A DNA stretch of 36,730 nucleotides from an uncultured Gammaproteobacteria bacterium (GTDB lineage: Bacteria; Patescibacteriota; Microgenomatia; Levybacterales; UBA12049), in assembly GCA_964364105.1 (NCBI GenBank), contig CAYILI010000003.1, forward strand, positions 1-36,730, read 5' to 3'. The translations under genes were made by a program, and so were the position numbers. This document shows, piece by piece, positions 3,641 to 26,771 of the stretch (its first letter is position 1; every line of letters begins with the position of its first letter). Below the pieces are notes generated by a model, which worked only from the letters and a program-made list of their open reading frames with translations, was not told the DNA's origin and did not search any database.

Positions 3641-4516
3641 ATGCAGTCTCCTAATTATCAGTTTCTAAAAGATAAGTGGACTAAAAGACATAAAGAACTA
3701 CAAGAGGCAATAGCTCAAAAACATTCAGATTCATTTCGATGGCTTTCAGATAACACAAAGCAGCTAGCGGTTGGATCCTTAGGAAGTCTTGTTCTATTAA
3801 CTTCTCCTATCCAAAAAGATTCCATGAATACGAAAGTAAAAGTAGCGGGTCTAGAAGCGCAAAAAATTAATACCAATGTATTTCTCATAACAGATCTCTC
3901 TAAATCTCTGCCTGATTTAGTTAGACCTCTTACCGGTAGCGAGGAAGCAGCTGCGAGCGCAATTCTCTCAAAAAACTTCGGAATGACTGTAACACCTGAA
4001 ATTAACGGCTTAAGACTAAACAGAAGTTACGGACTTATCGGGTCTGAACAGCATTTAGCAAGATATCCGGGAGACAATATGAGCACACATTTTGATGGAA
4101 ATAGTGAAGACGCAGAAAAATATCATTCATCTGGAATGGCACCAGGCCTTGGCGCTTGGGGATATTTCACCACTTCCAGGTCTCAAATGACAGAGGAAGA
4201 CACCCTGCGTGAGAAATACTATATAGCAGTTCAGACCTTTCTGGCTCCAGATTTTAATAGTAGAGTTTCTGAATACAGAGACTTTTTCAAATACAGAAAA
4301 ATGCTTGTAGTAAATCCAGAAAACGGTAAAGCAGTAGTCGCTGTAATTGGAGACGCTGGGCCCGCTGAGTGGACAGGAAAACACCTTGGGGGAAGCCCTG
4401 AAGTGATGAAGCACCTAGAAAGAGTAGATGGCGCAGCAAAAGGACCAGTTCTATATTTTTTCATAGAAGATCCTAACGACGCTATTCCATTAGGACCAGT
4501 AAAAGCTTTACAATAA
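3641..4516 (+). CDS. Hypothetical exported protein, possible C-terminal RlpA-like double-psi beta-barrel
   Basis: V.NP.NGKAVVAVIGDAGP resembles the RlpA/DPBB pattern V.N..NG.SV.V.I.DRGP. Start at ATG 3641 after TGTTACAAT. Confidence 0.55.
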   Translation: MQSPNYQFLKDKWTKRHKELQEAIAQKHSDSFRWLSDNTKQLAVGSLGSLVLLTSPIQKDSMNTKVKVAGLEAQKINTNVFLITDLSKSLPDLVRPLTGSEEAAASAILSKNFGMTVTPEINGLRLNRSYGLIGSEQHLARYPGDNMSTHFDGNSEDAEKYHSSGMAPGLGAWGYFTTSRSQMTEEDTLREKYYIAVQTFLAPDFNSRVSEYRDFFKYRKMLVVNPENGKAVVAVIGDAGPAEWTGKHLGGSPEVMKHLERVDGAAKGPVLYFFIEDPNDAIPLGPVKALQ

Positions 4517-4975: not shown

Positions 4976-6153
4976 TAAATAAATTTAAATTAAGTTTTGC
5001 TAAATCTGGTTTGACCGTTGGAAAACTTATCCCAATACTTGCTGGTGTTTTAATATTAACTAGTATTGGATTCTTAGCTTACTACAAACAATCGACGAAT
5101 CTAAACAAAGAACTTAAACTAACTAATGAAAAGGCTCAGGCTGAACTTAACAAATTAAAATCCGAAGATCAATTTAAGAAAAATAAAGATCTTGAAGCTA
5201 CCATCGCGAGTATTGAGAAAACATACGCTCAAGCCGTAACTCTTTATGAAAAAATAATTGATGCAAAAGACGCTAAGAGAAATGTAGTGGAATATGAAAA
5301 GACATTTGCCGCAAATCTAAACCTATTATCTAAAAGAAACTATGCTTCAGCAGGGGCGCAGTTTACTAAGCTAAGTACTAAAATAGATCAAGATGCTCCC
5401 AAACCTTTGGCATCAAGCGCGGTGGGAAACACGGCCAATGTAGCAATTAACAATACGGCACCAGGCTCAGGATTTAGTAGACAAAAGGTTAAAACAGATT
5501 TTGGAGAATTTATAGTAGACATTGTAGCTGCTGACATGAATTCTACCCGAGTTATTGTGGATACTGCTTCGGACGGAGACTGCAGAGATAATTGCCCGGT
5601 TTTGGCTTTAGGAGATTATGTAGGCAGAAGTGGTGCGTTTGCAGGAATTAATGGATCTTATTTTTGTCCGGCAAGCTATCCATCATGTGCTGGAAAAACC
5701 AATTCATTTGATACACTTCTTATGAATAAAAATAAGAAATATTTTAATTCTGATAATAATGTCTATTCTAATGTTCCGGTAGTAATATTTTCAGGAAATT
5801 CTGCTAGATTTATAGGAGCTAGTTCTGAGTGGGGAAGAGATACTGGCGTAGATGGAGTCTTAGCTAACCAACCGCTTTTAGTCTCAGGCGGGAACGTAGT
5901 TTTTGGAGGAGATGATGAAGTTAAAAGAACTGGATCTGGAAGCAGAAGTTTTGTTGGCTCTACTGGTTCAACTGCTTACATAGGAGTTGTTCACGGCGTA
6001 AATGCAGCACAAATGGCCAGAGTACTTTACGCTATGGGCATCCAGAACGCTTTAAACTTAGACTCTGGTGGATCAACTGCTCTTTGGAGCGGAGGTTATC
6101 GTGTAGGCCCTGGCCGCGCAATCCCAAACGCAATCTTATTCATTAGAAAATAG
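4972..6153 (+). CDS. Membrane-anchored phosphodiester glycosidase (NAGPA) family protein
   Basis: N-terminal TM and coiled coil, then the motifs AGINGSYF, RSFVG, ALNLDSGGSTAL and R.IPNAI. Confidence 0.8.
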   Translation: MINKFKLSFAKSGLTVGKLIPILAGVLILTSIGFLAYYKQSTNLNKELKLTNEKAQAELNKLKSEDQFKKNKDLEATIASIEKTYAQAVTLYEKIIDAKDAKRNVVEYEKTFAANLNLLSKRNYASAGAQFTKLSTKIDQDAPKPLASSAVGNTANVAINNTAPGSGFSRQKVKTDFGEFIVDIVAADMNSTRVIVDTASDGDCRDNCPVLALGDYVGRSGAFAGINGSYFCPASYPSCAGKTNSFDTLLMNKNKKYFNSDNNVYSNVPVVIFSGNSARFIGASSEWGRDTGVDGVLANQPLLVSGGNVVFGGDDEVKRTGSGSRSFVGSTGSTAYIGVVHGVNAAQMARVLYAMGIQNALNLDSGGSTALWSGGYRVGPGRAIPNAILFIRK

Positions 6154-11400: not shown

Positions 11401-11598
11401 TGGCGTAACGTCTATTGCTTTATGCTCACCACCATTTAAAACAGTTGAAATTTCAGTAAAGGTCGCATCCCGAACAGAAGTACCAACTACCCCATTCTCA
11501 CTAGTTCTTAATGACTGAGTCCTTGATTGAACCTTACGTCAATAACCAAACTATAGGACTCCTTATTGTGGCTATAACTCCGCTTTGATATAATAGTT

Positions 11599-11633: not shown

Positions 11634-11697
11634 CTAGATATTGTTATTATTAATTTGTTCATTGACAGTAAGTCCACATAAGCCTTATTCTTATAGA

Positions 11698-12169
11698 GTG
11701 AAGTCTTGCATCAGATGTAAGAATAAGTTTAAAGCTTCTTAGTAGGCACCTTAATTGTCCAAGCTGTAGAAAAAAATCTTACAAAAATTCTTGTCCAATT
11801 TGCAAAAAACCAAAACAAAGAAAGTCCAATTTATGTTCTGTTTGTTTTAATCTGAGTAAACAGTACCCATGCTCAAAAACAAGACATATTAGTAAGAATG
11901 GGTATGTCTACGTTTATTTTAGAGCTCATCCAAACTGCGACAAAGAAGGAAGGGTATTTGAACATCGTCTGATTATGGAGAAAAAACTAGGAAGATATTT
12001 GCTCCCTTTTGAAAATGTACATCATAAGAATGGGTTAAAATCAGATAATAGAATTGAAAATCTTGAACTTTGGGTTAAGGCTCAGCCTGCTGGCGCTAGA
12101 GTCGAGGATGTTGTAAAATGGGCTGAGGAAATCATGAGATTATATGGTGGCGTTAGCTCAATTGGCTAG
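11698..12169 (+). pseudogene. Zn-finger + HNH endonuclease, frameshifted by 1 nt at about 11740
   Basis: GTG 11698 after TTGACA-18-TATTCT. Four CxxC pairs (CIRC, CPSC, CPIC, CSVC), then GYV...HP...EHRLIME..LGR.L...ENVHHKNG.K.DNRIENLEL. An extra T at GCT-TCT-T-AGT breaks the frame. The stop codon lies inside the tRNA D-loop. Confidence 0.8.
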
Positions 12170-12220
12170 AGCATCAGATTGTGGTTCTGAAGGTTGCCGG
12201 TTCGATTCCGGTACGCCACC
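12146..12220 (+). tRNA. tRNA-His (GTG)
   Basis: G-1, acceptor GTGGCGT/ACGCCAC, D arm GCTC/GAGC, anticodon arm TCAGA-TTGTGGT-TCTGA, T arm GCCGG-TTCGATT-CCGGT, C73. The full CCA is not encoded. Confidence 0.96.
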
Positions 12221-12295
12221 CATTCGACAAGCTCGAGGTTACTGACCTATTTTGTATTCATTGAAATCTTCTTATCCAAGTTGTATTCTTTAATT

Positions 12296-12517
12296 ATGTT
12301 AACTAAAAATGATTTGAGTGAAATTGGAAAAATAATAAGAGAAAGCATAAACCCTCTTGAACTTAAAGTAAACTCGATGGAGAAAGATCTAAAAGATGTT
12401 AAGAAGAGAGTTAGAAAAACTGAAAAGACTGTAAATATAATGATCGATCGTTTTGATAAAGATATAGTAGGAACCCAGAGGCGAGTTAGAATTATAGAAG
12501 ATCATCTAAATTTATAA
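12296..12517 (+). CDS. Small coiled-coil protein (MLTKNDL...IEDHLNL), paralog of 13688-14020
   Basis: ATG 12296. The track ORF from 12194 overlaps the tRNA and is over-extended. It shares N- and C-terminal motifs with the 13688 ORF. Confidence 0.75.
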   Translation: MLTKNDLSEIGKIIRESINPLELKVNSMEKDLKDVKKRVRKTEKTVNIMIDRFDKDIVGTQRRVRIIEDHLNL

Positions 12518-12523
12518 AGCCGT

Positions 12524-12548
12524 CGAACCATCCCCATTATCCACCCAT
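12524..12548 (+). repeat. att-like junction, family A
   Basis: CGAACCATCCCCATTATCCACCCAT, 22/25 identical to 14027-14051. Confidence 0.75.
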
Positions 12549-12635
12549 AAAATTTGTCCGCAGATTTCAGGGTAAACCCCAGATTTTCTAGCCTCGAAAA
12601 TCTACGAACCATAATGAGATCTAGAACAACTATAA

Positions 12636-12977
12636 TTACCAAGCATTATTTACGTAATTTAATAAGAAGACAAGCGGTAAGAATGCTAATGTCCAGATGA
12701 TTCCAAATGCTACTCTTTTTATAATAATTTCTTTATCTTGTAAGCCTTTATTACCTTGCCTCAATCTTATTAAAATAACTGTTATACCGATAAATAATGT
12801 TATAAATTTTAAAAAATGTATTTCAGGACTTCTTCCATAGTCTATGTTGATTCTTGTTCCCCAATGTGAAATTTCATGAGTTAAATCATAGGCAAAAGCA
12901 TATAAAAAATAACTTGGGACATAATATAAAATTATCCCAAATACATCGAACCAGTAAAATTTCTTTTTTTGCTTCAT
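12636..12977 (-). CDS. Hypothetical membrane protein
   Basis: 113 aa with three hydrophobic segments. Confidence 0.65.
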   Translation of the reverse strand: MKQKKKFYWFDVFGIILYYVPSYFLYAFAYDLTHEISHWGTRINIDYGRSPEIHFLKFITLFIGITVILIRLRQGNKGLQDKEIIIKRVAFGIIWTLAFLPLVFLLNYVNNAW

Positions 12978-13041
12978 AAAAAAAGACTAACATAAATTAA
13001 TTAAATTGACAATTACCTTCGTGTAGGTATATAAAAGTTAT

Positions 13042-13551
13042 ATGGCAAAAAAGGCACCTCCGGTAACTATTACGCAGTTTCTATTTATAGTAATTCCTCT
13101 ATTTTTGCTTTTTCCCATTGTTTTTTATTTAGGCGAAAATGGCATTGAAATTGGTCTCGGGATGATAGTTTTATGGGGTTTATTTGTTTTTTATCAAATG
13201 TATAAGCACCGAAATTACAAGAAACCAGAAGATACATTATTTAAAAGTTCAATTGAAAGGCAAAATAAAATATTTATTTTTGGGATAATTGGAATAATTA
13301 TTTTTATGTCAATGTTTTTCGGAATTATGTATTACTGGCTTAAAGACGTTGCAGTTGTTGAGAACTGTAAAGAAATTGCATTTGCAAAAGGACAAAGTGT
13401 TTATACGACAGGAAAGGTAGACATTTTAACTTATAATAAAACTTTTGAAGAATGCGTTAAGACTTATAAAGTTTCTTTTGGTGATTTTTACAAGGATATC
13501 TTCGGTGCAGCTAGAGATAGAGCTGAAGAAGATAAGAAGATAAGAAGATAA
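13042..13551 (+). CDS. Hypothetical membrane protein
   Basis: 169 aa with three TM segments; TTGACA upstream at about 13006. Confidence 0.7.
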   Translation: MAKKAPPVTITQFLFIVIPLFLLFPIVFYLGENGIEIGLGMIVLWGLFVFYQMYKHRNYKKPEDTLFKSSIERQNKIFIFGIIGIIIFMSMFFGIMYYWLKDVAVVENCKEIAFAKGQSVYTTGKVDILTYNKTFEECVKTYKVSFGDFYKDIFGAARDRAEEDKKIRR

Positions 13552-13585
13552 GAGATAATTTGATTTTTCGTAAGCTACTAGAATT

Positions 13586-13615
13586 TGTTCTAGGAACTCA
13601 TCATCTAGGACCCAC
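13586..13615 (+). repeat. att-like junction, family B
   Basis: TGTTCTAGGAACTCATCATCTAGGACCCAC, 28/30 identical to 14725-14754. Confidence 0.85.
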
Positions 13616-13687
13616 TCGACAGGTTCAAGGTTTGCTGACCTAATTTGTTATATTGAAATAAATTAATCAAAGACTTATTCTTAAGAC

Positions 13688-14020
13688 ATGATAACGAAAA
13701 CTGATTTAGATCAGATAGGAAAAGTTGTTCGAAAAATAGTAAGAGAAGAAGTAGAGGCTGAATCTAAAAACATAAAGGATGACTTAGAGCACGAAATAAG
13801 GACAGCAAATCTTCATATAAGAAAATCGATTGGGGAATTAGAAGATAGACTGAAAAACGTAGAAATTAGGTTATCTTCTATTGAAAATGAGCTAAAATCA
13901 TTGAGAAAAGATGTTAAAAAGCTCCAGAAAGATGTAAGCGTCGCTATTGATGTCTTTAATGTTGAAGATACAAGGCTAGGTAAAAGAGTTCAAAAAATTG
14001 AAGCCCATCTTCAAATTTAA
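13688..14020 (+). CDS. Small coiled-coil protein (MITKTDL...IEAHLQI)
   Basis: Heptad-rich; paralog of 12296-12517. Confidence 0.8.
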   Translation: MITKTDLDQIGKVVRKIVREEVEAESKNIKDDLEHEIRTANLHIRKSIGELEDRLKNVEIRLSSIENELKSLRKDVKKLQKDVSVAIDVFNVEDTRLGKRVQKIEAHLQI

Positions 14021-14026
14021 ACTTTC

Positions 14027-14051
14027 CGAACCATCTCCGTCATCCACCCAT
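14027..14051 (+). repeat. att-like junction, family A
   Basis: CGAACCATCTCCGTCATCCACCCAT. Confidence 0.75.
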
Positions 14052-14100
14052 CGTCCTATAGTATTGACTTTTAACTTCACTTTTGATATAGTTCTACTCT

Positions 14101-14721
14101 ATGTATGGACCAGAATCTTCACCACTAAGACCCGATGCGGCCGATCTTTTAATTGAGGGGGTATCTATGTTTCCAAATATTCAATTCGATAAAATAGATG
14201 TTCCTACCACTCAGTTTCCAGCTCTAACGGATAGAGTTCAGGCAATTCAAGATGAATTAGGCAGGCCGCCCGTTACGGCAGTTTTTTGTTCTCAAGGAAT
14301 ATATAGATCTCGTATTATTGCAAGTAAGCTACATGAAGCAAGTCTTGTTCAGCTTTCAAAATTTAACTGGAGACGTCAGGATATACCGGGGGATGAAAGG
14401 GGTAAGCCATGGACCTCATCTGAACATGAAATGGCATTAGGTGCGGGGTTGCGGGGTTATGAGGCTAATTCTTTAGGAATTGATGATGATGGTGGAATTG
14501 TCAATACAAAGGGAGAAACTGAACTAATTGATTTGTTGATTATAGCTCTCTCTTCAGATGTTATTAGAACAAGAAATCTAGAAGTTTTAGTTAATTTATT
14601 AAAATATTTTCAAGCAAGATTACCAGAAACTGAACAAACCAGACCCGCTTATCTTGTATGGTTAAATACCTCTGAAGATGATCTTGATATTTGGTTTCCG
14701 GAGTTAGCGCAAAAAGAGTAA
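14101..14721 (+). CDS. Hypothetical protein with CX5RS (LMW phosphatase-like) P-loop
   Basis: VTAVFCSQGIYRS; promoter TTGACT-17-TATAGT at 14064-14092. Confidence 0.6.
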   Translation: MYGPESSPLRPDAADLLIEGVSMFPNIQFDKIDVPTTQFPALTDRVQAIQDELGRPPVTAVFCSQGIYRSRIIASKLHEASLVQLSKFNWRRQDIPGDERGKPWTSSEHEMALGAGLRGYEANSLGIDDDGGIVNTKGETELIDLLIIALSSDVIRTRNLEVLVNLLKYFQARLPETEQTRPAYLVWLNTSEDDLDIWFPELAQKE

Positions 14722-14724
14722 ATC

Positions 14725-14754
14725 TGTTCTAAAAACTCATCATCTAGGACCCAC
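14725..14754 (+). repeat. att-like junction, family B
   Basis: TGTTCTAAAAACTCATCATCTAGGACCCAC. Confidence 0.85.
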
Positions 14755-14797
14755 GATATAGTTTGATATAGTTTAAATATTCATATATAATCTCCCC

Positions 14798-15250
14798 ATG
14801 GAAAGACCAGGCTCTACACCTGAAATTGATGGTTTACCAACTGGGTTAATTTATACTCCTGAGCAATTTGATGCAAAAATGTTATCAGGTCAATTTCCAT
14901 TGACTGATTTAATAGCATGTCATTCTCATAAAACAGAACGTATTCAAATGGATTTTAGAGATGAAGACATGGAGAGAAAACAATGGATTCAATTGTTTCC
15001 AAAGCAAGTAAAACAAATTGGTTTTGGTAGATTTAGTCACAGGTTAGAAAGATATTATATTCCGCCAGTAGAGCTGCTTCGTGCTAATAGAGTGGATTTT
15101 GCTCATGAAATTCAGGTTGTATATGGTGGTTTAGATTTAGAAGGATATATTGCAGGACTTAATCCCAGACAAGACCCTGAATGGTTTGGGGCTGTAAGAC
15201 TCGAAAGAAGAATTCCCGCTACTTATATTAAAGTAATAATCCCATTTTAG
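14798..15250 (+). CDS. Hypothetical protein
   Basis: 150 aa; promoter TTGATA-17-TATAAT at 14763-14791. Confidence 0.7.
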   Translation: MERPGSTPEIDGLPTGLIYTPEQFDAKMLSGQFPLTDLIACHSHKTERIQMDFRDEDMERKQWIQLFPKQVKQIGFGRFSHRLERYYIPPVELLRANRVDFAHEIQVVYGGLDLEGYIAGLNPRQDPEWFGAVRLERRIPATYIKVIIPF

Positions 15251-15345
15251 TAATTAGTTAATTTGTTTTAAGAATTTAATTTATAAAAATAAATTAACAA
15301 AAGATATTTTATAAAACTCGATTTCTTCAGCCTTCAACCTACTGA

Positions 15346-15379
15346 AATAAGTCCGAACATCTTTCGCTAACCCACCCAT
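15346..15379 (+). repeat. att-like junction, family C
   Basis: AATAAGTCCGAACATCTTTCGCTAACCCACCCAT; the first 16 nt are identical to 23814-23829. Confidence 0.75.
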
Positions 15380-15556
15380 TAAATTGTTTTGAGGGTGCAA
15401 AAAGGCACTTTGACTTAATATAGAATCAAAATTAACAGACCCCTCCGCTATTGTTTTTCAATTCTCCATAAGGTCAGGGGTTAATCCCGCATTAACCTAT
15501 AAGTTTGGTGATTTGTTAATAAAATTGTATAATAGGGAAGAGAGGAGAAAAATAGT

Positions 15557-15754
15557 ATGAACGGAATAATTAAAACAAAAACAGAAAAAGGATTTGGATT
15601 TATTTCTCGTGAAGGAGAAGATAGAGATCTTTTTTTCCATTCAAATGATTTAGTCGGTGTGACTTTTGATGAACTTCAAGTAGGAGCAGCCGTGACTTTT
15701 GAGGTTGTACAAACCGAAAAAGGATCAAATGCAAAAAACGTAAAACTTGCTTAA
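15557..15754 (+). CDS. cspA: Cold-shock protein
   Basis: RNP motifs KGFGFI and DLFFHSN, plus VTFEV...KG..A.NV; AGGAG RBS. Confidence 0.93.
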   Translation: MNGIIKTKTEKGFGFISREGEDRDLFFHSNDLVGVTFDELQVGAAVTFEVVQTEKGSNAKNVKLA

Positions 15755-15774
15755 AGTCTTACTAATTGCAAATA

Positions 15775-15802
15775 AAGAGCCTCGCACCATGCGAGGTTTT
15801 TT
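15775..15802 (+). terminator. Rho-independent terminator
   Basis: CCTCGCA-CCA-TGCGAGG followed by a T run. Confidence 0.85.
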
Positions 15803-15905
15803 GTTATGTATCTCATGCGCTTTACTCGAGGAATGAGAAGACCTTGTTGTTTCAATAGAAATCTATGCAGTAGCCTTATGTCTCAAAAAATTGGCAATTT
15901 TTAAC

Positions 15906-16550
15906 TTAAAAACCAAGCTTCTCATTAACGATGATTACATAAATTTGTCTACCCATCATTGGATTTTCCTTGTGAAGAATAAGTGTTTTGGCGTGAGTTG
16001 TACCAACTCCATAAACTCCTTGCATTCTTTTATTTTCAAGAGGTATTACGTGCTCATCTAATCTTTTAAATGCTCCGTCAAGGTCGGTTACAATTTTTTG
16101 CGCTCCCACTACAAATATTATATTTTGAGAAGTAAATACCAAATGGGGAAGCTGACTACCCGTATTAGAAGCAATCAGAATTTCACCATTTTGTGTAACC
16201 GCATGAGCACTACCTAAATAGAAATCAGAAATTACTGATGTTTTCCTAAGCTTACTCTGTTTTTCCGGATCAAGTTCAGCTAAAACTTTTTCATGAAGAT
16301 TATTCCACTTATGCTTGCCATTTTTTAAATAATCTATATATCCAATTTCCCCAAGTGTTGCTGATGCTCCATTCATGACTGTTGCCTCATGTGGAATTAA
16401 GTCCTGAATTTTTTCAAATGCTTCTTCTCTTGTATCTACAAATATAGGTAAGAATCCATTTACCTTAAGAGAGTTAATTGTTTTTAAAACTACTGAATTA
16501 TCAGCTAGTTCGTTAAAATTGTTTTTATTATTTGTTTGAGCGGGTGTCAT
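15906..16550 (-). CDS. LUD-domain (lactate utilization LutC/YkgG-like) protein
   Basis: Motifs L..NGF, GASATL.EIG, DFYLGSAHAVT.NGEI, VVGAQKIV and E.LGF. Confidence 0.85.
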   Translation of the reverse strand: MTPAQTNNKNNFNELADNSVVLKTINSLKVNGFLPIFVDTREEAFEKIQDLIPHEATVMNGASATLGEIGYIDYLKNGKHKWNNLHEKVLAELDPEKQSKLRKTSVISDFYLGSAHAVTQNGEILIASNTGSQLPHLVFTSQNIIFVVGAQKIVTDLDGAFKRLDEHVIPLENKRMQGVYGVGTTHAKTLILHKENPMMGRQIYVIIVNEKLGF

Positions 16551-16574
16551 ACTTATGTTATAATTGCTACATAA

Positions 16575-16616
16575 ACTATAGCGCTAAGAAATTTATAGTA
16601 CTATAGAAATTATAGT
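16575..16616. promoter_or_regulatory. Candidate HxlR operator (ACTATA/TATAGT inverted repeats)
   Basis: ACTATA at 16575 and 16600, TATAGT at 16594 and 16611; TATAGTACTATA is a perfect palindrome between the divergent genes. Confidence 0.45.
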
Positions 16617-16928
16617 ATGTCAACGACCAAATTTGAAGCTTCAGAAATAGATAATGCAATCTCAATGATTGCTGAAGCTCATATGCTTTGTATTATCAAT
16701 CATCTTTCTGAAAAAGAAATGAGATTTAATGAAATTCAGCGCTCAATTAAGGATTTAAATCCGGCTACACTTTCTGATCGACTGAAAAAACTTGAAAAAG
16801 ACGGATTAGTTAATAGGAAAGAAGAAACACTCGATAAGGTTTCTGTTGTTTATGCTCTTACTGAAAAAGGGAGGGCAATTCTTCCTGTCATAAATGAGAT
16901 TTCAAAATTCGCACAGAAATATTCATAA
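16617..16928 (+). CDS. HxlR-family winged-helix transcriptional regulator
   Basis: Motifs MRFNEI, TLSDRLKKLE.DGLV.R and V.Y.LTEKG..I.PVI. Confidence 0.9.
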   Translation: MSTTKFEASEIDNAISMIAEAHMLCIINHLSEKEMRFNEIQRSIKDLNPATLSDRLKKLEKDGLVNRKEETLDKVSVVYALTEKGRAILPVINEISKFAQKYS

Positions 16929-17730: not shown

Positions 17731-18672
17731 TTAGAAATTGTTTTCTGAAATTATTTTAAGTAGATTTGGAACTCCGGGATCTCCTGGCATGTACCATTCG
17801 CTTCCTTTTGCTCCATATTTAAAATATGCAATACCTGAAAGACTATTATCCCTCATGACTTGGTCTATGTCATTTAAAAGCTGACTTTCTGATGGCTTCA
17901 CCCAAAGAGGCTGTTCTTCCCAAGCACCAAGCGCAATGATAATTTTAGTATCTGGGTCAATTTTTCTGATCGAACTTTTAGCTCTTTCTGTTACTACGCT
18001 TACAAAATCATCATAATAGTCGTCAACATTACTATACGCATTAACCATAACTATATCTGCCGTATTCTTATCAAAGGGATTTCCGCCTCTAAAAAAATTA
18101 TTGTCATTATCATAAAAAAACCATCCGTTCATACGTACGAGAATTGGGTGAACTGGATCAGCTTGCTTTACATCTTTATAAGATTGCTTAAGTTGAAATT
18201 GAGTCAGCATAAACCTTGAAGGGTTAGGAAAAACAGATCCTGCCTCATTGGATATGTCCCAAGCGTATACAGCAGGGTGGTCTTTCCACCTCTTAATCCA
18301 ATCCACCACATCTTTTTTATTCCAGGTAGGCTTTTGGTCATCCGGATATCTTTCCTGATCGCACTTATAACCCCACTCAGCTTCTCCCGAACCTGCAGGC
18401 ATTATAACTTTAATGTGATATTTTTGACTTTGATCCAGGAAATATTTAATATTCTCATCACTTGCGCAAATATCAAAATTTCCCTCTATAACATCTACTT
18501 TTGCATCTTCTAAGATTTTAAAATCCGCTTCTGCTAGACCAAAATGATCCATATAAGCTTCTCCAACATCCTTCATGATTTTCAGATGGGGAACATTTGA
18601 AGCTTTATAATTCGTAATAACAATTAAAAATGCTATTAAAAAAAGTGTAATTAATAAATATAAGTATTTCAT
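17731..18672 (-). CDS. Membrane-anchored clan GH-A glycoside hydrolase (GH5/GH2-like)
   Basis: KDHPAVYAWDISNEAG acid/base motif and K..DP.HPI; N-terminal TM. Confidence 0.75.
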   Translation of the reverse strand: MKYLYLLITLFLIAFLIVITNYKASNVPHLKIMKDVGEAYMDHFGLAEADFKILEDAKVDVIEGNFDICASDENIKYFLDQSQKYHIKVIMPAGSGEAEWGYKCDQERYPDDQKPTWNKKDVVDWIKRWKDHPAVYAWDISNEAGSVFPNPSRFMLTQFQLKQSYKDVKQADPVHPILVRMNGWFFYDNDNNFFRGGNPFDKNTADIVMVNAYSNVDDYYDDFVSVVTERAKSSIRKIDPDTKIIIALGAWEEQPLWVKPSESQLLNDIDQVMRDNSLSGIAYFKYGAKGSEWYMPGDPGVPNLLKIISENNF

Positions 18673-20513
18673 TTGCCAAAGAATACAGAGTCTACATAAA
18701 GTTCAGTTGTGCTATTTGGAGTTGAATAGTATTGCAAACGCACACTTTTAACTTGCGCACTTGTTGGCGCATAATCAAACTCTTTAGTACCTATAAAAAC
18801 AGAGTCTACAAGCCCTTTCCATTGTCCCGAAATCCAATTACCTGATAAGTCATATTCATCTATATAAAACCCAAACTCTCCGCCAATCGTTAAAGTCTTA
18901 AGATATTGTGTCCACTTATAACTCACGGTTGAATCCACACTAATTTTTGAACTAAATGCATGCGTGGAAAGAAGATTAGGAACAAGATGAAGTGAATTTT
19001 TCCCGTCATTTCCAAGTGAATTCTGGTCTATGGAAAAGCTATCGCTATCTCTTTCCCATAAATCTGCCCAATCACTTATAAGACTCTCAAAACTATTATT
19101 CGCTATAAGGCTTATACTAGCGATGGAAGTAGGCGAAGCCGTAGGCGTCGCAGTAGGGAAGGGAGTCAAAGTTATAGTAGGTATTAATGTCAAAGTTGGT
19201 GTTAAAGTAGGTGATGGCACTGGCAAGCTCTCTACTGGATCTAAATCGTCTAGCGGATTTACGACACCTTGCGCATTCGTTAAATTATATAATTGATAAT
19301 TATCTACGAAGATTTGCCCAGAAACCGCAGCACTAAAAAATGTTTGGATTTTAAATTTTGCAACAGAAGGAGAAGACGGCGTATAAATAGTTGAAAAATA
19401 TGAAACAACTAAATTATTAACTGGATAATACTGGCCTGATATCCAATTATTTGAAGAATCATATTCATCTATATAAAAACCAAATTCTCCGCCTTTTCTG
19501 CCCAGTGTATTAATAAAAGCTTTAAAAGCATATTTTGAACCTGGAATTACAGATACTCTTGGTGTGTAAAGATGTCCCTGCGCTGTTCCCGTAAACTTAA
19601 TCGAGTCCACAGAAGAGGGAAAAACGCCTTTTGACGAGATATCTTTTATAACACTTGCTGGATTATCAGCGACCCAGCCCTGTGAAATTCCACCCGAAAA
19701 ACTTCCATTCGGGAGTATATTCGTAGATCCCATGTTAAACCCTTCACTCACTTTAACTGAACGAATCAAACCTACATTCTGCTTGGTTTTAACGTATGAT
19801 GCTATTTGATCAAGTTTTGCTTTACTATACTCATATTCGTCAGGATTTGAATTAGCGGTTATTTTTACTTTATGAAAAACTAGAATGAGCCACTGCTTAT
19901 TTGCAATAGCAGTATCAATTGCTGTTTTTACCTCTGCAACTGTCACTGGTTCCTGTACCTGTTTTACCTGAAGTATATAATCATTATAGGGGAAGATGTT
20001 TTTATTCCTATCCCAAAAGCCCCTATGGGAGGCATAGTACTTTGCAACAATCGCTAAAGAACTATAATCATAGTCTCCTTCTGGGCTTGCAAACTGAGAA
20101 ACTTTTAAACCGTGGTTTTGTAATTCTTTCTTGCCTTGTAGAATTTCTGTTTCTTTTTGCGCAGCCGTTAGCTCAGAAAGTCTTTTATGATTTATGCTGT
20201 GCCCGCCAACCTCCCAGCCATATAGATCTTGTAATTGTTTTACCTGGGTCCAATTCATGTACGAAGCTGTTGGATCTACATTATTCCTGCAAACTCCCGT
20301 ATTATTAATGCATCCAGTCGATACATAGACAGTCCCATCAATTCCATATTTAGCCAATACGGGTTCCGCTATGTTAATCGTACTTTGAAAACCGTCATCA
20401 AACGTAAAAGAAACTTTTGCAGTATTTGATGCAGCATATGCATAGGTTCTTATAAAACCAAACATAAGAACGAAAATTAAAATGACAATTGTTTTATTTA
20501 ATATTTCTTTCAT
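18669..20513 (-). CDS. Secreted polysaccharide deacetylase (NodB/CE4) with two CBM-like domains and a Pro/Thr linker
   Basis: Motifs VSFTFDDG, GWEVGGHSINH and WLILVFH; duplicated GGEFGFYIDEYD..NWISGQ domains. Confidence 0.88.
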   Translation of the reverse strand: MKEILNKTIVILIFVLMFGFIRTYAYAASNTAKVSFTFDDGFQSTINIAEPVLAKYGIDGTVYVSTGCINNTGVCRNNVDPTASYMNWTQVKQLQDLYGWEVGGHSINHKRLSELTAAQKETEILQGKKELQNHGLKVSQFASPEGDYDYSSLAIVAKYYASHRGFWDRNKNIFPYNDYILQVKQVQEPVTVAEVKTAIDTAIANKQWLILVFHKVKITANSNPDEYEYSKAKLDQIASYVKTKQNVGLIRSVKVSEGFNMGSTNILPNGSFSGGISQGWVADNPASVIKDISSKGVFPSSVDSIKFTGTAQGHLYTPRVSVIPGSKYAFKAFINTLGRKGGEFGFYIDEYDSSNNWISGQYYPVNNLVVSYFSTIYTPSSPSVAKFKIQTFFSAAVSGQIFVDNYQLYNLTNAQGVVNPLDDLDPVESLPVPSPTLTPTLTLIPTITLTPFPTATPTASPTSIASISLIANNSFESLISDWADLWERDSDSFSIDQNSLGNDGKNSLHLVPNLLSTHAFSSKISVDSTVSYKWTQYLKTLTIGGEFGFYIDEYDLSGNWISGQWKGLVDSVFIGTKEFDYAPTSAQVKSVRLQYYSTPNSTTELYVDSVFFGK

Positions 20514-21085
20514 ATTTCTTCTATGTTAATAAGCCTTGCTCTGACCCTATATCTATTTTGATCAAAAACCCCATCGCAAGTAATTAATGTTAAAATTGGA
20601 TTTTCCTCCGGGTAAAATGCTTCAACTGATGAAGGTAAAACCTTATCGCTTGCCTCAACTACGTAAAATGCTTTATAGTTTTGACCATAAACAATTACGC
20701 TGTCTCCAACCGAGAGCCTCTTAATATTTAAAAAAACATCAGGAAGGGCATGACCAAATATTCCTACATTTCCTGTCTTTTCATTAATAAGACTCGTACC
20801 TTCTGCGAAATTTGCAACACCCGGATGAACTTCCCATGTACCATTTTCCATAGGAACCGAAACAACAGGAAGATCAATACCCGCTTTCTCCATTACCACC
20901 CTTTCTGGAGTAAAAGATATTACGTTTTCTTGTTCCACGTCAACCGACACATAACAATTAGCACACTCCCCGTCACCAGCATCTACTACCTGCGCAAACT
21001 TTTGGTCCAGTGTGACAAAACTTAATATTGCAGTAGTTAATAAGAAAACTGCAAATATGTTAACCCTATTTAATAAAAACTTCAT
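20510..21085 (-). CDS. Sortase
   Basis: N-terminal TM and the catalytic triad GNVGIFGH, LTLITC and R (NRYRVRA). Confidence 0.9.
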   Translation of the reverse strand: MKFLLNRVNIFAVFLLTTAILSFVTLDQKFAQVVDAGDGECANCYVSVDVEQENVISFTPERVVMEKAGIDLPVVSVPMENGTWEVHPGVANFAEGTSLINEKTGNVGIFGHALPDVFLNIKRLSVGDSVIVYGQNYKAFYVVEASDKVLPSSVEAFYPEENPILTLITCDGVFDQNRYRVRARLINIEEI

Positions 21086-21270
21086 ACACTCCTATTTTTT
21101 AAATATCGGCTGATATGTCCCAATAACATTAAGAATAATATTGCGTTAATAACTACAAAACTTGCTGCTATTACAGGGTGAACTTTATCTGCTAGGATAA
21201 ATCCTGCAGCTGAAGTCGCTGGCAATGCAGTTGCTAAACCCAATACTCCTCCTTTTCCATATTCTGTCAT
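21082..21270 (-). CDS. Minimal sortase-substrate-like peptide (LPATS + TM + basic tail)
   Basis: RBS AGGAGGTG 9 nt before ATG 21270; sequence GGVLG...LPATS, a hydrophobic helix, then RYLKNR. Confidence 0.7.
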   Translation of the reverse strand: MTEYGKGGVLGLATALPATSAAGFILADKVHPVIAASFVVINAILFLMLLGHISRYLKNRSV

Positions 21271-21290
21271 ACTATAAAACACCTCCTTTC

Positions 21291-22718
21291 TTACCTGGTT
21301 CCCCAGGCAGCTCCATAACCAATTCTGGAAAATCCAGATTGGCTTAGCTTATATAAATTGTTAATTCCAGTTACAAACTTAGAAGCGGCAAAACTATAAA
21401 ATAAAAACAAATATGAACCTAAAAGAATAAGACTTAATAAATTCGAATAAATGAATTCCGGGAAGAAAGTAAATTTAAGAATAGAATCTTTGAAATCCCG
21501 ATCAGGATAGGAGAGATGTGTGAAAACCGTATAAACTATAATTACTGCAAAATTTATTGAAGAAATTGCAAATAAAACAGGCGTAAATGCTGACTCCTTA
21601 TAAGTTCCTGCATAAATAAAGGATAGTGTAATCAAGATCAACAAAACTATAAAAGTGAAATGTCCAACCAGGTCTTGGTAAATTGCAATAAACCAATTCC
21701 AGTTCTGAATTATTACTCTTAAGCCTCCACTTGTCCATCTTGCCCGTTGTTTCCAAAGACTACTAAATGTTTCCGGAACTTTTGTCCATGCCACAGCAGT
21801 CTGAGAAATTCTAACTTCCCATCCTTTTATTTTTGATCTAACAGTAAAATCATAGTCTTCGATCAGATGCCCCTTTGAAAAACCGTTTAGATCTTCTAGA
21901 ACAGTCATTCTAATTGCTGCTAACATCCCCTGCATTACGAGAGGACCCCGGAAAAAACCATTATCAGCAATTTTCGTAATATTAAAACTGTGATACTCCA
22001 TCGCTTGCATGCGAGTTAGCAAATTTTTATTTTTGTTTATCACTCTAACTTGAGAGCAAACAATTCCAATTTTTGAATGTTTATAAAGTTCATTTATCAT
22101 CTCGGGAATTGTACTTTGGATAATTTTTACGTCATCATCAAATGTGAAGACTACATCTGGTCTTTGATAAACCAATGATCTTAAATAATTCACTCCATAA
22201 TTTAGGGCTCCAGCTTTCATTTGATTTTCAGCCGTTCTTAGAATAATAATCTTGTAATTAAATCTTGCTAATTCAGAAATCATAGAAAAAATATTTTGAG
22301 TTTCGGAATCATTTGGAGAAGAATCATCAACTACCACAATTGATACCTTTGGAAACCAATCAGAAATGGATTTTATTAAATTATATGTTTCAATTGATGG
22401 CTTATAAGTGGGAATTACTACTGAAACACTTTTACCATAAAAGGTGGCTTCAAAGCTTTTTTTAGCAGGAGTTTTTGGAATAAAAAAACTAGAAAAATTC
22501 TCTAAAGTTTTTTTAGAGATGTTACGTAAGATAAATTTTCGAGCGTTATAAAGTATAAAAAATATTTTTATAAAGCCTGAAACTAATAGATATAGCTTGA
22601 AGCTTGGGGACGATAAAACTTGTTTTGCGATTAAAATATCGCCTGTTAAAAATAGCAAAATAAATAAGCTATCTAGAAAAAACCTCAATTGCCCCGAAAT
22701 ATTTGTGTTCTTATACAT
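21291..22718 (-). CDS. Processive GT2 glycosyltransferase (IcaA/PgaC/cellulose-synthase-like)
   Basis: Motifs VSVVIPTY, VVDDSS, KAGALN, FDDD, IEDYD and QRARW; flanking TMs. Confidence 0.9.
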   Translation of the reverse strand: MYKNTNISGQLRFFLDSLFILLFLTGDILIAKQVLSSPSFKLYLLVSGFIKIFFILYNARKFILRNISKKTLENFSSFFIPKTPAKKSFEATFYGKSVSVVIPTYKPSIETYNLIKSISDWFPKVSIVVVDDSSPNDSETQNIFSMISELARFNYKIIILRTAENQMKAGALNYGVNYLRSLVYQRPDVVFTFDDDVKIIQSTIPEMINELYKHSKIGIVCSQVRVINKNKNLLTRMQAMEYHSFNITKIADNGFFRGPLVMQGMLAAIRMTVLEDLNGFSKGHLIEDYDFTVRSKIKGWEVRISQTAVAWTKVPETFSSLWKQRARWTSGGLRVIIQNWNWFIAIYQDLVGHFTFIVLLILITLSFIYAGTYKESAFTPVLFAISSINFAVIIVYTVFTHLSYPDRDFKDSILKFTFFPEFIYSNLLSLILLGSYLFLFYSFAASKFVTGINNLYKLSQSGFSRIGYGAAWGTR

Positions 22719-22929
22719 AAAACAGGGCAAGGACAGAGATTATATTGTACATTATAGGTTGTGTCAACAAGAAATCTTAAATTCTAAGAATTACAGTTAA
22801 ATCAAGAACTTACAAATGATAGGGGACTAGATGCTTATAGGATAATTTTTCCGCAAATTCTATAATTTTCTTAACCCAAATCTTCAAATACTAATACTAT
22901 AGTTTGATTTAAGAATAAAAAGATTAAGA

Positions 22930-23721
22930 CTAACTTTCTAAATACAAATTAAGGAGTTCTTGGTGGATTTCTTTATTTTTTCCTGCTATAGCTCCTACTG
23001 ATTTAACCGTCCATTCGTTTCCGGAAAGATCAGTTATTACACCACCTGATTGCTGAATTAAAAAACTGGCAGCACTGATATCCCATGGGTGATTATATGA
23101 ATTTAAAAAACCATCTACTTTACCTACTGCTGTATAGGTAAAACTAAGAGAAGAATTAAGAGAAATAATATTAAAATTATTATCCAAAACTAACTTTTTC
23201 AAAAAATTATTGTGTTTTTTCTTTTGTTCTTTTTTTAGAGAAGCAATAGAACCAAAATCCACTTCTAAAGTTGTGTCAAATCTTTTTTCATTCGGCTGAA
23301 ATACTTTTTCATTTACGTAAATTCTATTCCCGCCAACTGACCAAAAATAATCTTTCTGACTGTGATCAATAACACATGAAGCAATAATCTTACCTTTTTC
23401 TGTAAGGACTATATTTGTACAATAATTATTTATCCCCCTGGCGAGATTACTAGTTCCGCAAATAGGATCAATAATCCATATCCGACCTTCTGGAATTGCA
23501 GTATTTGTATTGTTTTCTTCCGCAAGTATTTGATCTTTGGGAAATCTTTTTTTAATTTCCTCAACGATGAGGTTCTCAACATCAATATCAACCTGTGTAG
23601 AAAAATCACCCTCTCGCTTATGCTGAGCGATTGCCATGCTTTTATCAGGATTTGAGACCAAATCACGAACGACATCAGCAATATAATGAAAAAGGTCCTT
23701 TTCCTGTTGGAGCTTATTCAT
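22930..23721 (-). CDS. Inositol monophosphatase family protein
   Basis: Motifs T.VD, ILAEE, WIIDPICGT.N and PWDISAA...QSGG.ITD. Confidence 0.88.
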   Translation of the reverse strand: MNKLQQEKDLFHYIADVVRDLVSNPDKSMAIAQHKREGDFSTQVDIDVENLIVEEIKKRFPKDQILAEENNTNTAIPEGRIWIIDPICGTSNLARGINNYCTNIVLTEKGKIIASCVIDHSQKDYFWSVGGNRIYVNEKVFQPNEKRFDTTLEVDFGSIASLKKEQKKKHNNFLKKLVLDNNFNIISLNSSLSFTYTAVGKVDGFLNSYNHPWDISAASFLIQQSGGVITDLSGNEWTVKSVGAIAGKNKEIHQELLNLYLES

Positions 23722-23813
23722 GTGGAATAATTATATCATGACAGAAGGTCAAAATTTACAGAGTTGCAAACGCGGTCTGTAGAATATTAGTTCTTGTGCT
23801 TGGAAGGTGCTAT

Positions 23814-23847
23814 AATAAGTCCGAACATCGTTCGGTAGGCTACCCCA
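23814..23847 (+). repeat. att-like junction, family C (distal copy)
   Basis: AATAAGTCCGAACATCGTTCGGTAGGCTACCCCA, homologous to 15346-15379. Confidence 0.65.
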
Positions 23848-23898
23848 AAAAACCTACTGTTTTATTCAATAGCTACAAATTTGATATAATCCCTTCCT

Positions 23899-24609
23899 AT
23901 GTCTGTTGAGAGTCAATATTTCCCGGATGTTAATTTTAGAGAATTAACTGAAGTTTTACCTGAAAGAAGTAGACTAGAACGGTTAATACCCGGATTTTTA
24001 CGAAGAGAACCGCGCGTTTATTACGATGAACACGTAGCTCTTGATCAACTATTAGACGATTTTAGTGAAACATTAGGTATGGTCTCGGCTTCTACAGGAA
24101 CAAGGCTTACCATGGATGGCGTTCATGTCCAGCTGATAACAAGAAAACAGTTAATCAATTCATTAAACAATCCTTCTAAACTAGAAGAGGTGCATGGAGA
24201 TGGAGTTTTGCAAATGATAGACGGAAATTGTACGAAAAACCCAGACGGAACATGGTTAATAAACATAGTCCAAAATAGAACAGATCATGTAGTTCAAGTA
24301 TCGCGGTCTATGGAAATCTTAGCCCATGAGTACGGACATACTCTTGGAAATGAATTTAACGCACATCCGATGCTGGAAGAAGTAAAAGCATATGCTTTTC
24401 AAGCTATGGCAATGGCAGCAAATTGGAAAATTCCAGAAAGCTATTACAAACTAAGCGGCACGTATGTAAATTACACGCATGACGTTGCAAGAGATCGGCT
24501 TATGCAGCTTAGAGATAGAGGTTTTCCTACAGGAATAATAATCGCTACTTTAACCGACAAACCTTTCGGAAATTTCAGAGTCAATAGCAATATGCATCCT
24601 GATCTTTAA
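23899..24609 (+). CDS. Hypothetical protein with HExxH zinc-metallopeptidase-like motif
   Basis: ILAHEYGHTLG followed by EEVKAYAF (possible third Glu ligand). Confidence 0.6.
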   Translation: MSVESQYFPDVNFRELTEVLPERSRLERLIPGFLRREPRVYYDEHVALDQLLDDFSETLGMVSASTGTRLTMDGVHVQLITRKQLINSLNNPSKLEEVHGDGVLQMIDGNCTKNPDGTWLINIVQNRTDHVVQVSRSMEILAHEYGHTLGNEFNAHPMLEEVKAYAFQAMAMAANWKIPESYYKLSGTYVNYTHDVARDRLMQLRDRGFPTGIIIATLTDKPFGNFRVNSNMHPDL

Positions 24610-25991: not shown

Positions 25992-26771
25992 ATGAAAGCT
26001 TGGTTATTTGACGTAGATGGAGTTATTACAAATCCAGAGCTTAAAAAGGCAAATCCCCAAATTATTAAAAAACTTTCCGAAATCCTAGAAAGAGGAGAAA
26101 TCCTGGGTTTTAATACAGGCAGAGCACTTGAGTTCGTAATCGAGGATGTTTTAAAACCACTGAACGTGGCACTCACAAACAAAGAGCTTTTATATAATGT
26201 TTTCTTCGTTGGGGAAATGGGTGGAACATGGGGAGATTATAAAAATGGAAAAATCGAAGATACAATTGACCCTCAAATCACAATTCCTGATGAATTAATC
26301 CAGAAAATTAGAGATCTAATTTCTTTTAAATATTCTGACACTATGTTTTTTGATGAAACCAAAAAAACTATGATTTCTGTCGAACTTATAAAAGGAAAAG
26401 ATTTGGCTCGGTTTCACGAAGAACAAAAAAAACTTATAGAAGATATGAGGAAGATCCTTGAGCATTTAGGTGACGCTAATTTAGTAATTGATCCAAACAT
26501 TATTTCGACAAATATCATAAACTCTCATGTGGGGAAAGACCTAGGAGTCAAAAGATTTCTCATGCTTATTAAAGACCGACCCGAACCTGAAGAATTTGAG
26601 ACATTTGGTGATAACCAAAGCGACTTAGAGATGCATAAATATCTTATTAAAAACGGCCACAAATCGAGATTTATATATGTAGGAGCTAAAGAAATCGAAG
26701 AAGGGAAAAATATAATTAAAACAAAAGCCAAATTCGACAAAGGAACTATAGAATATTTATCAGTAAACTAA
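25992..26771 (+). CDS. HAD-superfamily hydrolase (Cof/IIB-like)
   Basis: Motifs LFDVDGVIT, NTGR, K (GKDLG) and FGDNQSD. Confidence 0.85.
   Translation: MKAWLFDVDGVITNPELKKANPQIIKKLSEILERGEILGFNTGRALEFVIEDVLKPLNVALTNKELLYNVFFVGEMGGTWGDYKNGKIEDTIDPQITIPDELIQKIRDLISFKYSDTMFFDETKKTMISVELIKGKDLARFHEEQKKLIEDMRKILEHLGDANLVIDPNIISTNIINSHVGKDLGVKRFLMLIKDRPEPEEFETFGDNQSDLEMHKYLIKNGHKSRFIYVGAKEIEEGKNIIKTKAKFDKGTIEYLSVN

Follow-up and report, generated by a model that had tools for sequence, protein, structure and literature searches.

The window analysed here is an entire contig of 36.7 kb (CAYILI010000003.1, 36,730 nt) from a groundwater candidate-phyla bacterium, and it contains an array of small gene cassettes, 12222 to ~15489, directly behind its only tRNA gene, tRNA-His(GTG). 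The array probably arose by tandem site-specific insertions at the tRNA-His 3' end, made by minimal integrase-less cassettes served in trans. The array is modular, and its arms of family A derive from the tRNA; relatives differ by cassettes bounded at ACCC, the same cassette is found in different positions in different genomes, and linkage to tRNA-His, in the same orientation, extends across an order and beyond. The source assembly (G000) comprises 1.2 Mb in 116 contigs, and its related records include Levyibacteriota, Roizmanbacteria, Woesebacteria and Daviesbacteria, all Patescibacteria of the Microgenomatia group. The anchor and the array are composed of the following features (ORF, open reading frame; aa, amino acids).

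12147-12221, + strand: tRNA-His(GTG), array anchor (ARAGORN, Rfam RF00005); the encoded G-1 is the G at 12146
12222-12546, + strand: cassette 1, with leader R1 at 12222-12295, a coiled-coil ORF at 12296-12517 (73 aa) and arm A1 at ~12515-12546
12547-12579, + strand: remnant unit of 33 nt, ending gggtaaACCC; the R3 leader profile begins at 12576
12580-13613, + strand: cassette 3, with an R3-type leader, two ORFs and arm B1 at 13582-13613
12636-12977 (- strand, 113 aa) and 13042-13551 (+ strand, 169 aa): the two ORFs of cassette 3, both membrane-like
13614-14049, + strand: cassette 4, with leader R1, a coiled-coil ORF at 13688-14020 (110 aa) and arm A2 at ~14018-14049
14050-14752, + strand: cassette 5, with leader R2 (TTGACT-17-TATAGT), an ORF at 14101-14721 (206 aa, no family) and arm B2 at 14721-14752
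14753-15377, + strand: cassette 6, with a promoter leader (TTGATA-17-TATAAT), an ORF at 14798-15250 (150 aa, no family) and a C element
15289-15377, + strand: C element of cassette 6, with hairpin CGAA/TTCG, ending ...CTAACCCACCC
15378-15489 (approximate), + strand: degenerate remnants with junction-like ends ...acagACCC at 15439-15442 and ...aatCCCG at 15483-15489, followed by the conserved csp flank

ARAGORN and Rfam (RF00005, 66.5 bits) agree on the anchor, which is the single tRNA-His among the 29 tRNAs of the assembly and is complete at the head of the array, as it is in relatives. Its 3' end, ...CGCCACCC, includes the first ACCC junction at 12218-12221. A first-pass annotation made from the sequence had read this end as recurring between genes, and the positions were confirmed. 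The word CCACCCAT has five matches in the window, four on the + strand (12216, 12541, 14044 and 15372) and a fifth on the - strand inside a long ORF (26217-26224), against 0.56 expected per window, and the total of five was reached by 1 of 100 shuffles. The word GGACCCAC is found only at 13608 and 14747 (0.16 expected; 0 of 100 shuffles reach two). All six + strand array sites of the two words lie between ORFs. Across both strands of the 1.2-Mb assembly, CCACCCAT and GGACCCAC match 30 and 12 times, respectively, and inspection by eye of the matches outside the locus showed no arm-like context.

Unit sizes of 325, 1067, 436, 703 and 625 bp follow from the core coordinates, as originally reported. 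The proposed core ACCCAY reflects real repeats, but the boundary common to all junctions is ACCC followed by 2-3 variable bases, with an arm to the left and a leader to the right. Three additional degenerate junctions end at 12579 (gggtaaACCC), 15442 and ~15489, and the array thus spans 12222 to ~15489, with six units containing genes or remnants plus terminal debris. Because of the degenerate junction at 12579, the 1067-bp unit resolves into a 33-nt remnant and a 1034-nt cassette.

The arms had been sorted into three families in the order A, B, A, B, C; the families are real, but A and C are related, both being found by a single nhmmer profile. Arms A (aligned spans 12506-12548 and 14009-14051) end at ACCC, at 12546 and 14049, respectively, and arms B (13582-13615 and 14721-14754) are 91% identical over 34 nt. 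Two tRNA-His alleles are present in the genus: the window and its relative G014 share one, ending ...CCGGTACGCCACCC, and the second, ending ...CCCCGTCATCCACCC, is carried by G001, G003, G008, G009 and G015. Arms A1 and A2 and the arm of G012 align to the final 32 nt of the second allele (24 of 32 positions for A1), a span consisting of the variable loop, T arm and acceptor end. With the 8-nt core held fixed, arms A score z 4.6-5.0 against the tRNA (A1, 5.0), a score reached by 0 of 300 shuffles, and arm A2 is identical at 15 of 15 nt to the tRNA-His 3' end of G001, G008 and G015. Arms A are attachment-site (att)-type copies of the tRNA-His 3' end, which bears out for this family the earlier reading of the arms. 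Inserted DNA that ends, on its far side, in a copy of the 3' part of a tRNA is the classical sign of site-specific integration into tRNA genes in the available portions of three reports (10.1101/2020.12.28.424599, PMC5704250, PMC3146451). Origin by tandem insertion at the tRNA 3' end, leaving att copies, is supported by arms A and by the ACCC block ends described below.

Cassettes 1 and 4 are paralogous along the whole unit, including leader, coiled-coil ORF (73 and 110 aa, respectively) and arm A. The six window ORFs have no Pfam family above cut-off, only coiled-coil noise, and searches with PADLOC and a protein atlas gave nothing credible and no usable lead, respectively. Promoter-like sites precede four of the ORFs, at 14763-14791 (11/12), 14064-14092 (10/12), 12261-12289 and 13653-13681 (9/12 each). 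The sigma-70-like sites are good in cassettes 5 and 6 and weaker in cassettes 1 and 4; the total of 20 such sites, against 14.4 +/- 3.2 in shuffles, is not above chance. The R3 leader and arm B of cassette 3 form a short gapped inverted repeat (17/20; 0 of 500 shuffles), and the R3-to-B cassette of G001 has one of 12/13 (11 of 500 shuffles). By gapped local alignment, terminal inverted repeats are at chance in 5 of 7 cassettes, and an ungapped repeat finder did not report the likeness of R3 leader and arm B.

Leader families were considered as recombination sites and dropped. Leader R2 is a generic promoter of the organism: it matches ordinary promoters elsewhere, on C1, C2 and C85. A word resembling R1 stands after a gene on C11. 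The similar sites (C1 ~4094-4141, - strand; C2 24718-24767; C85 4109-4160; window 14052-14092) share a CCTATAG-TTGACA-like box, 17 nt and TATAAT before unrelated genes, and this CCTATAG-headed strong consensus appears to be the organism's standard promoter.

Cassette differences and distribution among relatives

Genome G014 represents a different species of the genus, and outside shared blocks its identity to G000 is 80-87%. It matches the window at 99.1% over 11847-12546 and at 98.9% over 13583-14049, with identity stopping exactly after ACCC, at 12546 and 14049. The place between these blocks is taken in G014 by a 1.4-kb cassette of unrelated sequence, with two ORFs (99 and 346 aa). It ends in its own B arm, which differs from that of the window at 2 of 33 aligned positions (93.9% identity). 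Positions 14050 to ~15497, holding cassettes 5 and 6, are absent from G014, where the csp flank follows directly after 14049; homology with relatives resumes at 15481 (G006) or 15498 (G014, G003). Sequencing run X4, from a different study, carries the G014 form, with 12546 joined to 13583. Blocks of 99% identity in genomes otherwise 80-87% identical imply, on sequence comparison, that the segment of HNH gene, tRNA and cassette 1, and likewise cassette 4, were probably exchanged recently between species.

Single cassettes also recur in different settings. The coiled-coil cassette of G012 (5129-5556) corresponds core to core to window 13610-14049, with 77% identity over 440 nt, and stands directly behind tRNA-His in G012 and behind arm B in the window. 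In G015 the tRNA precedes a GIY-YIG cassette that in G195 has a C arm before it. Genomes G186 and G195, of different genera, have the tRNA, leader, Peptidase_S51 gene and C arm in common and diverge at its ACCC; positions 2785-2873 of G186 correspond to the window C element at 15289-15377. In G030 and G033 two cassettes are in opposite order. Cassettes are the units of difference among genomes, as predicted: homology blocks end at ACCC, and the gain and loss breakpoints checked in relatives coincide with it rather than lying away from the cores.

Cargo outside the window includes AadA_C/NTP_transf_2, APH, GyrI-like, PQQ_2, Peptidase_S51, GIY-YIG, Y1_Tnp, Acetyltransf_8 (GNAT-type), RibD_C, Exo_endo_phos and AAA_18 proteins, with some genes on the strand opposite to the array. 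These are accessory genes of the kind found in integron cassettes. The largest array seen, in G001 (locus L014, C5 5875-12054), has six arm-marked junctions within ~6.5 kb behind the tRNA, and separate cassettes encode an AadA-like nucleotidyltransferase, an APH-family kinase, a GyrI-like protein, a PQQ beta-propeller and two secreted proteins. In the same genome, a conserved LUD flank is located 32 kb from the tRNA.

In G000 the arm profiles (nhmmer) match only the array and one further C element, and no comparable repeats were found at its other tRNAs; the arms are thus confined to the tRNA-His locus and are not genome-wide.

23757-23845, + strand: second C element (nhmmer E 0.0027; pattern with 1 mismatch; neighbours by Pfam)

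The second C element is 11.6 kb downstream, co-oriented with the tRNA, between a divergent inositol monophosphatase-like gene (-) and a 236-aa ORF (+). The segment around it (~17731-24609, between HxlR-like/fam11 and fam10 genes) is absent in G008 and G014, and this solitary copy may mark an older or larger island. As a separate observation, the minus strand of the C element (e.g. 23787-23828 and 15319-15360) reads as a possible micro-ORF starting in the hairpin loop (MFGLI...), with a stop at the same (14th) codon in 10 of 22 copies and basic residues before the stop.

At least one A/C or B arm (E<=0.01) is present at 12 of the 22 tRNA-His loci examined in the order. The C-arm word, allowing up to 2 mismatches, is found in 17 of 245 genomes of the order, with 23 matches versus 7 for a reversed control; for 16 of the 23, tRNA-His stands upstream on the same contig and strand, and the other 7 are on short contigs or unplaceable. 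Among 44 loci from species-genome and metagenome collections, which partly duplicate loci of the order survey, tRNA-His is upstream on the same strand in 18, and the usual layout across Microgenomatia is tRNA-His, then a leader with one gene and a C element, then the next leader. Genome G010 (L024, C3 ~14400-16830) has an array with A-, B- and C-type arms that is inverted, upstream of and divergent from tRNA-His; it begins at a degenerate tRNA-tail-like word, which suggests inversion between att copies. A viral origin of the arms was rejected after a search of IMG/VR gave no link to viruses: of the 47 contigs with the C-arm word, 43 show it within a single conserved stretch of phage coding sequence that has different flanks, the remaining 4 are unrelated, and the B-arm word occurs in no IMG/VR contig.

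Proposed mechanism, candidate enzymes and alternatives

The explanation we favour, with moderate confidence, is that the array between 12222 and ~15489 built up through successive site-specific insertions at the 3' end of tRNA-His. In each cassette a leader that brings its own promoter is followed by one or two genes and, on the right, by an arm stopping at ACCC. As a circle, with the arm abutting its own leader, a cassette would recombine with the ACCC-bearing tRNA end or with the arm of a resident cassette, leaving the tRNA intact and shifting older cassettes downstream. Arms A and C would represent the 3' third of tRNA-His, from variable loop and T arm to acceptor strand, copied as att-type sites, with only ACCC(A) in common for B. 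The enzyme would act in trans, and candidates are the Xer-like tyrosine recombinase pair, the large serine recombinase or a passing element. Site-specific recombination as the mechanism, its exact crossover point, the trans action and present-day mobility are inferred.

The first-pass annotation had found no recombinase in the window, and this stands, as PF00589, PF00239 and RAYT-like matches (RAYT, tyrosine transposase associated with repetitive extragenic palindromes, REP) are all on other contigs of G000. These are two Xer-like tyrosine recombinases (C53 and C4; PF00589), serine recombinases (PF00239) in the form of a large one next to tRNA-Arg(TCT) on C55 and a fragment on C45, and four Y1 genes of RAYT-like type. 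Searches by tblastn with two tyrosine recombinases as queries gave no match in the array loci examined or in the 44 collection loci; serine recombinases were looked for by genome-level profile only, not by tblastn in array loci. Alone among the recombinase types, the Xer-like pair occurs in every genome examined for it (10 of 10), which fits a role in trans but is no evidence for one.

On C55, the large serine recombinase is encoded behind tRNA-Arg(TCT) (1972-2045), on the opposite strand and in an open frame of 514 aa; the tRNA-Arg(TCT) end recurs as an 8-nt repeat 5 kb downstream, at ~7068. This region looks like an ordinary integrated element. The tRNA-Arg(TCT) gene adjoins tRNA-His in relatives.

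Several results weigh against tandem site-specific insertion. The C arms resemble the tRNA-His tail more weakly than arms A do (z 1.6-3.7), arm B has no tRNA likeness beyond its ACCC(A) tail, and conservation of the C element over ~90 nt across orders exceeds the need of a simple att site. Leader R2 is a generic promoter, so the leader families provide no evidence of recombination sites. At 10 of the 22 tRNA-His loci there are variable genes with no detectable arm (two of these loci have little or no downstream sequence). No enzyme is linked to the arms: serine recombinases are absent from G002, G008 and G186 at genome level, PF01797 (Y1_Tnp) has no match even at E<=0.1 in five array-bearing genomes (G030, G033, G186, G067 and G015), and the Xer-like pair, being universal, gives no signal. 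The G000/G014 pattern would also be expected from homologous exchange via shared flanking cassettes. Circles were sought in sequencing data, for which 12 runs from 4 studies were available as assembled contigs; in the Logan contigs of X1-X4, at a depth of 3-7 where rare forms are undetectable, the sole joint was 12546 to 13583, with no arm-to-leader or deletion joints and no empty site. As such contigs cannot reveal rare forms, this result has no bearing on mobility.

Alternatively, the array may be a fossil, in which integrase-carrying tRNA-His islands decayed to gene plus att repeat, site-specific movement of the units has ceased, and differences among genomes arose by homologous recombination between arms or shared cassettes after DNA uptake. 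Decay to att-flanked integrase-less units and tandem accretion is documented in the accessible parts of earlier reports (PMC5704250, PMC3146451, 10.1101/2020.12.28.424599), several arms are degenerate (the remnants ending at 12579 and 15442, and the arm of the G001 coiled-coil cassette), and the replacement between G000 and G014 is flanked by 99%-identical cassettes that are potential homology arms. Because shared neighbouring cassettes permit homologous exchange, the comparisons prove modularity and not the mechanism of exchange; the lack of circles among contigs of depth 3-7 also agrees with a fossil. However, tblastn found integrase fragments in no array locus searched, the units are compact (0.3-1.5 kb) with an intact ORF, promoter and arm, and the same small unit with the same ends recurs in different genera and positions. 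A one-gene unit with a well-kept C element is the rule across Microgenomatia, unlike random decay. A fossil array is on balance unlikely.

The conservation of the C element, ~90 nt in 34 distinct copies from several orders, could instead mean that the arms are promoter, terminator or RNA-processing modules under selection, which gene turnover uses as chance homology. The element contains two -10-like boxes (TGnTATAAT-like), a short hairpin and a tail resembling that of a tRNA, one copy is in an ordinary divergent promoter region, and leaders R2 and R1 have look-alikes elsewhere in the genome. Such modules would not be expected to be bound to one tRNA and one strand, nor to be plain tRNA copies as arms A are, and the arm profiles match only the array and one C element in the 1.2-Mb assembly. 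RNAalifold on the 34 C elements gave only a 4-bp hairpin on the + strand (-0.9 kcal) and nothing on the -, and neither the arms nor the C element had any Rfam match, at the gathering threshold or at E<=10. This functional reading is improbable.

Nuclease genes adjoin the anchor in several genomes.

11656-12169, + strand: HNH_3 endonuclease-like ORF (Pfam HNH_3 E 2e-09), overlapping the 5' end of the tRNA

In 6 loci one of the tRNA-His alleles shares its 5' end with an HNH_3 ORF, namely in those of the window, G014 (L013), G005, G025, G031 and G017 (the last four among L016, L027, L028 and L029), and an 80-aa GIY-YIG ORF precedes the other allele in 5 genomes (G008, G009, G015, G030 and G033; loci L015, L019, L031, L021 and L022). 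Two tRNA-His alleles thus circulate in the order, each paired with a different homing-endonuclease-type gene immediately upstream, which suggests that the tRNA-His gene itself is exchanged along with the nuclease gene. As separate observations upstream of the HNH ORF, a ~59-nt stretch (11536-11594) is 80-92% conserved in G003, G005, G008 and G009, and G014 and run X4 have a 132-nt insertion exactly at 11536.

The upstream nuclease might itself drive the hotspot by cutting cassette-free alleles where the tRNA end meets the trailer, with break repair copying the insertions of an occupied allele in a form of intron-less homing and the arms recreating the target. Besides the allele pairing, GIY-YIG genes also occur as cassettes (G002, G015 and G195), and the block of HNH gene, tRNA and cassette 1 is 99% identical in genomes otherwise 80-87% identical. 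Against this, the window HNH ORF is frameshifted: tblastn with the intact 175-aa G014 copy splits it into two frames (11656-11739 and 11729-12166) with the shift near 11739, where the G014-like run X4 is one base shorter, whereas the reading of the window is confirmed by three runs of its own type. No nuclease match is near the tRNA in the array-bearing genomes G001, G186, G195, G067 and G206, and homing leaves tRNA-derived arms, or arm B, at every unit end unexplained. Homing of this kind is a poor prospect as the cause of the array.

A further alternative is single-strand transposition by HUH/Y1 enzymes, in which non-autonomous IS200/IS605- or REP-like units, inserted 3' of ACCC and ending in a hairpin, ~10 nt and ACCC, are moved by RAYT-like enzymes. 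The C arm has a T-arm-like hairpin with its foot 10-11 nt ahead of the final ACCC (for the T arm of the tRNA the distance is 9 nt), insertion is always 3' of ACCC in a single orientation, and Y1_Tnp genes are present in 134 of 245 genomes of the order, with four in G000 and one as the first gene behind tRNA-His in G206. Opposed to this are the lack of Y1_Tnp matches in the five array-bearing genomes named above, the absence of a conserved hairpin from arms A and B and of a matching hairpin from left ends, and the finding by tblastn of RAYT-like genes in or near only 4 loci (G206, G002, L131 and L145, the last two among the 44 collection loci), about chance by a rough estimate. Transposition of this type is very improbable.

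Beyond tandem insertion as such, the locus could be a gene-capture system of the Microgenomatia's own, in which the tRNA-His 3' end is the insertion point, the C element and the A and B arms are recombination sites, and the enzyme is host-encoded (the Xer-like pair or the tRNA-linked HNH/GIY-YIG nuclease). We offer this only tentatively. If true, it would be an integron-like cassette economy (AadA-, APH-, GNAT- and RibD_C-type cargo) without an integron integrase, lasting across several orders.

Comparison with known systems

Integrons and clusters of attC sites lacking integron integrases (CALINs) line up one-gene cassettes in a single orientation, and a conserved element closes each cassette on the right; attC is an imperfect palindrome with a GTTRRRY core. 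In integrons an integrase (IntI) and attI site complete the system, and the cassettes are promoterless, with one common promoter for all. The array described here shares the format, the AadA-, acetyltransferase- and reductase-type cargo and a cassette order that differs among relatives. It differs in its platform, which is a tRNA end and not attI, in its junction, which is ACCC and not GTTRRRY, and in having cassettes with their own promoters: cassettes 5 and 6 have 10-11/12 sigma-70-like sites, R2 is a generic promoter and some genes are on the opposite strand. No intI gene is beside the insertion point, where the upstream sequence holds the HNH_3 ORF and unrelated genes, and the contig has no PF00589 match. 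A long attC-like imperfect palindrome was not found in the consensus fold of the 34 C elements (a 4-bp hairpin), with no dedicated attC model run. The integron likeness drawn initially thus applies to the outcome, but not to the parts, there being no IntI, no attC-type palindrome and no promoterless cassettes.

Xer-dependent modules, such as pdif modules and integrative mobile elements exploiting Xer (IMEX), are small gene modules without their own recombinase that are moved by housekeeping recombinases. The cassettes are likewise small and recombinase-less in genomes with an Xer-like pair (10 of 10 examined), but no dif-like 28-bp site (two inverted 11-bp arms and a 6-8 bp spacer) was noticed by eye at the junctions. 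IS200/IS605 derivatives and REP/RAYT systems insert in a specific orientation 3' of a short fixed word, with a hairpin ~10 nt before the right end; here RAYT genes do not co-occur with arrays, a hairpin is present in C arms only, and left ends are without one.

Closer parallels are the accretion arrays of streptococcal integrative and conjugative, integrative and mobilizable, and cis-mobilizable elements (ICEs, IMEs and CIMEs) and the Dehalococcoides ssrA islands. As far as the consulted sections of the two reports go, these consist of head-to-tail units behind an RNA gene, each bounded by a 3'-end direct repeat, with some units lacking integrase or transfer genes and with strain-specific cargo (PMC5704250, PMC3146451). 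Their units are several kb long and include integrase-bearing members (PMC5704250, PMC3146451), and 16 ssrA islands carry a serine-recombinase module according to the part of the source available (PMC3146451). In the present array an intact target tRNA heads the units, and the bounding repeat of the tRNA 3' end is clear for arms A, weaker for C and reduced to ACCC(A) for B; no tyrosine or serine integrase was found in the array or an accreted neighbour (serine sought at genome level only). The units here are 0.03-1.5 kb, mostly with one gene, and no tyrosine recombinase was found in the array loci searched. To this are added arm family B, which is not of tRNA type, and an end element of ~90 nt that several orders have kept.

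Tycheposon tRNA islands of Prochlorococcus, in the portion of the report consulted, also arise by serial integration at a few tRNA genes, which leaves degenerate remnants and, between the elements, partial copies of the tRNA; the genome is streamlined and poor in other mobile elements, and the cargo consists of niche genes (10.1101/2020.12.28.424599). Tycheposons differ in having their own tyrosine or large serine recombinase, often replication genes and cargo up to 10 kb (10.1101/2020.12.28.424599), and no such module is in the array. The first-pass remark that no such system had been described does not hold, as integrase-less att-flanked tandems at tRNA and tmRNA 3' ends are known from CIMEs and accretion arrays, besides the tycheposon islands; for tRNA-His cassette arrays in Patescibacteria specifically, no description was found in the parts of the open-access literature searched.

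In the tiny genomes of candidate-phyla bacteria few mobile elements can be recognised, and the way in which accessory genes enter them is largely an open question. The locus resembles a dedicated, conserved site for such uptake, where near-identical strains differ in units and units are common to several genera. If the units move in trans, they would be the smallest known class of integrative element, reaching an integron-like outcome with different parts, and tRNA-His together with the C element would offer an easy marker with which to mine the flexible genes of Microgenomatia, a pool that includes families of drug-modifying enzymes in groundwater organisms. Should the array be no more than a fossil of ordinary islands, tRNA-His would still be a long-lived integration hotspot across the entire class. 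As a class, the mechanism has precedents in CIMEs and accretion arrays, in ssrA islands and in tycheposon islands; what is new is the miniature single-gene format, array loci in which searches found no integrase, the non-tRNA arm family B and the long C end element present across orders of a candidate-phyla class.

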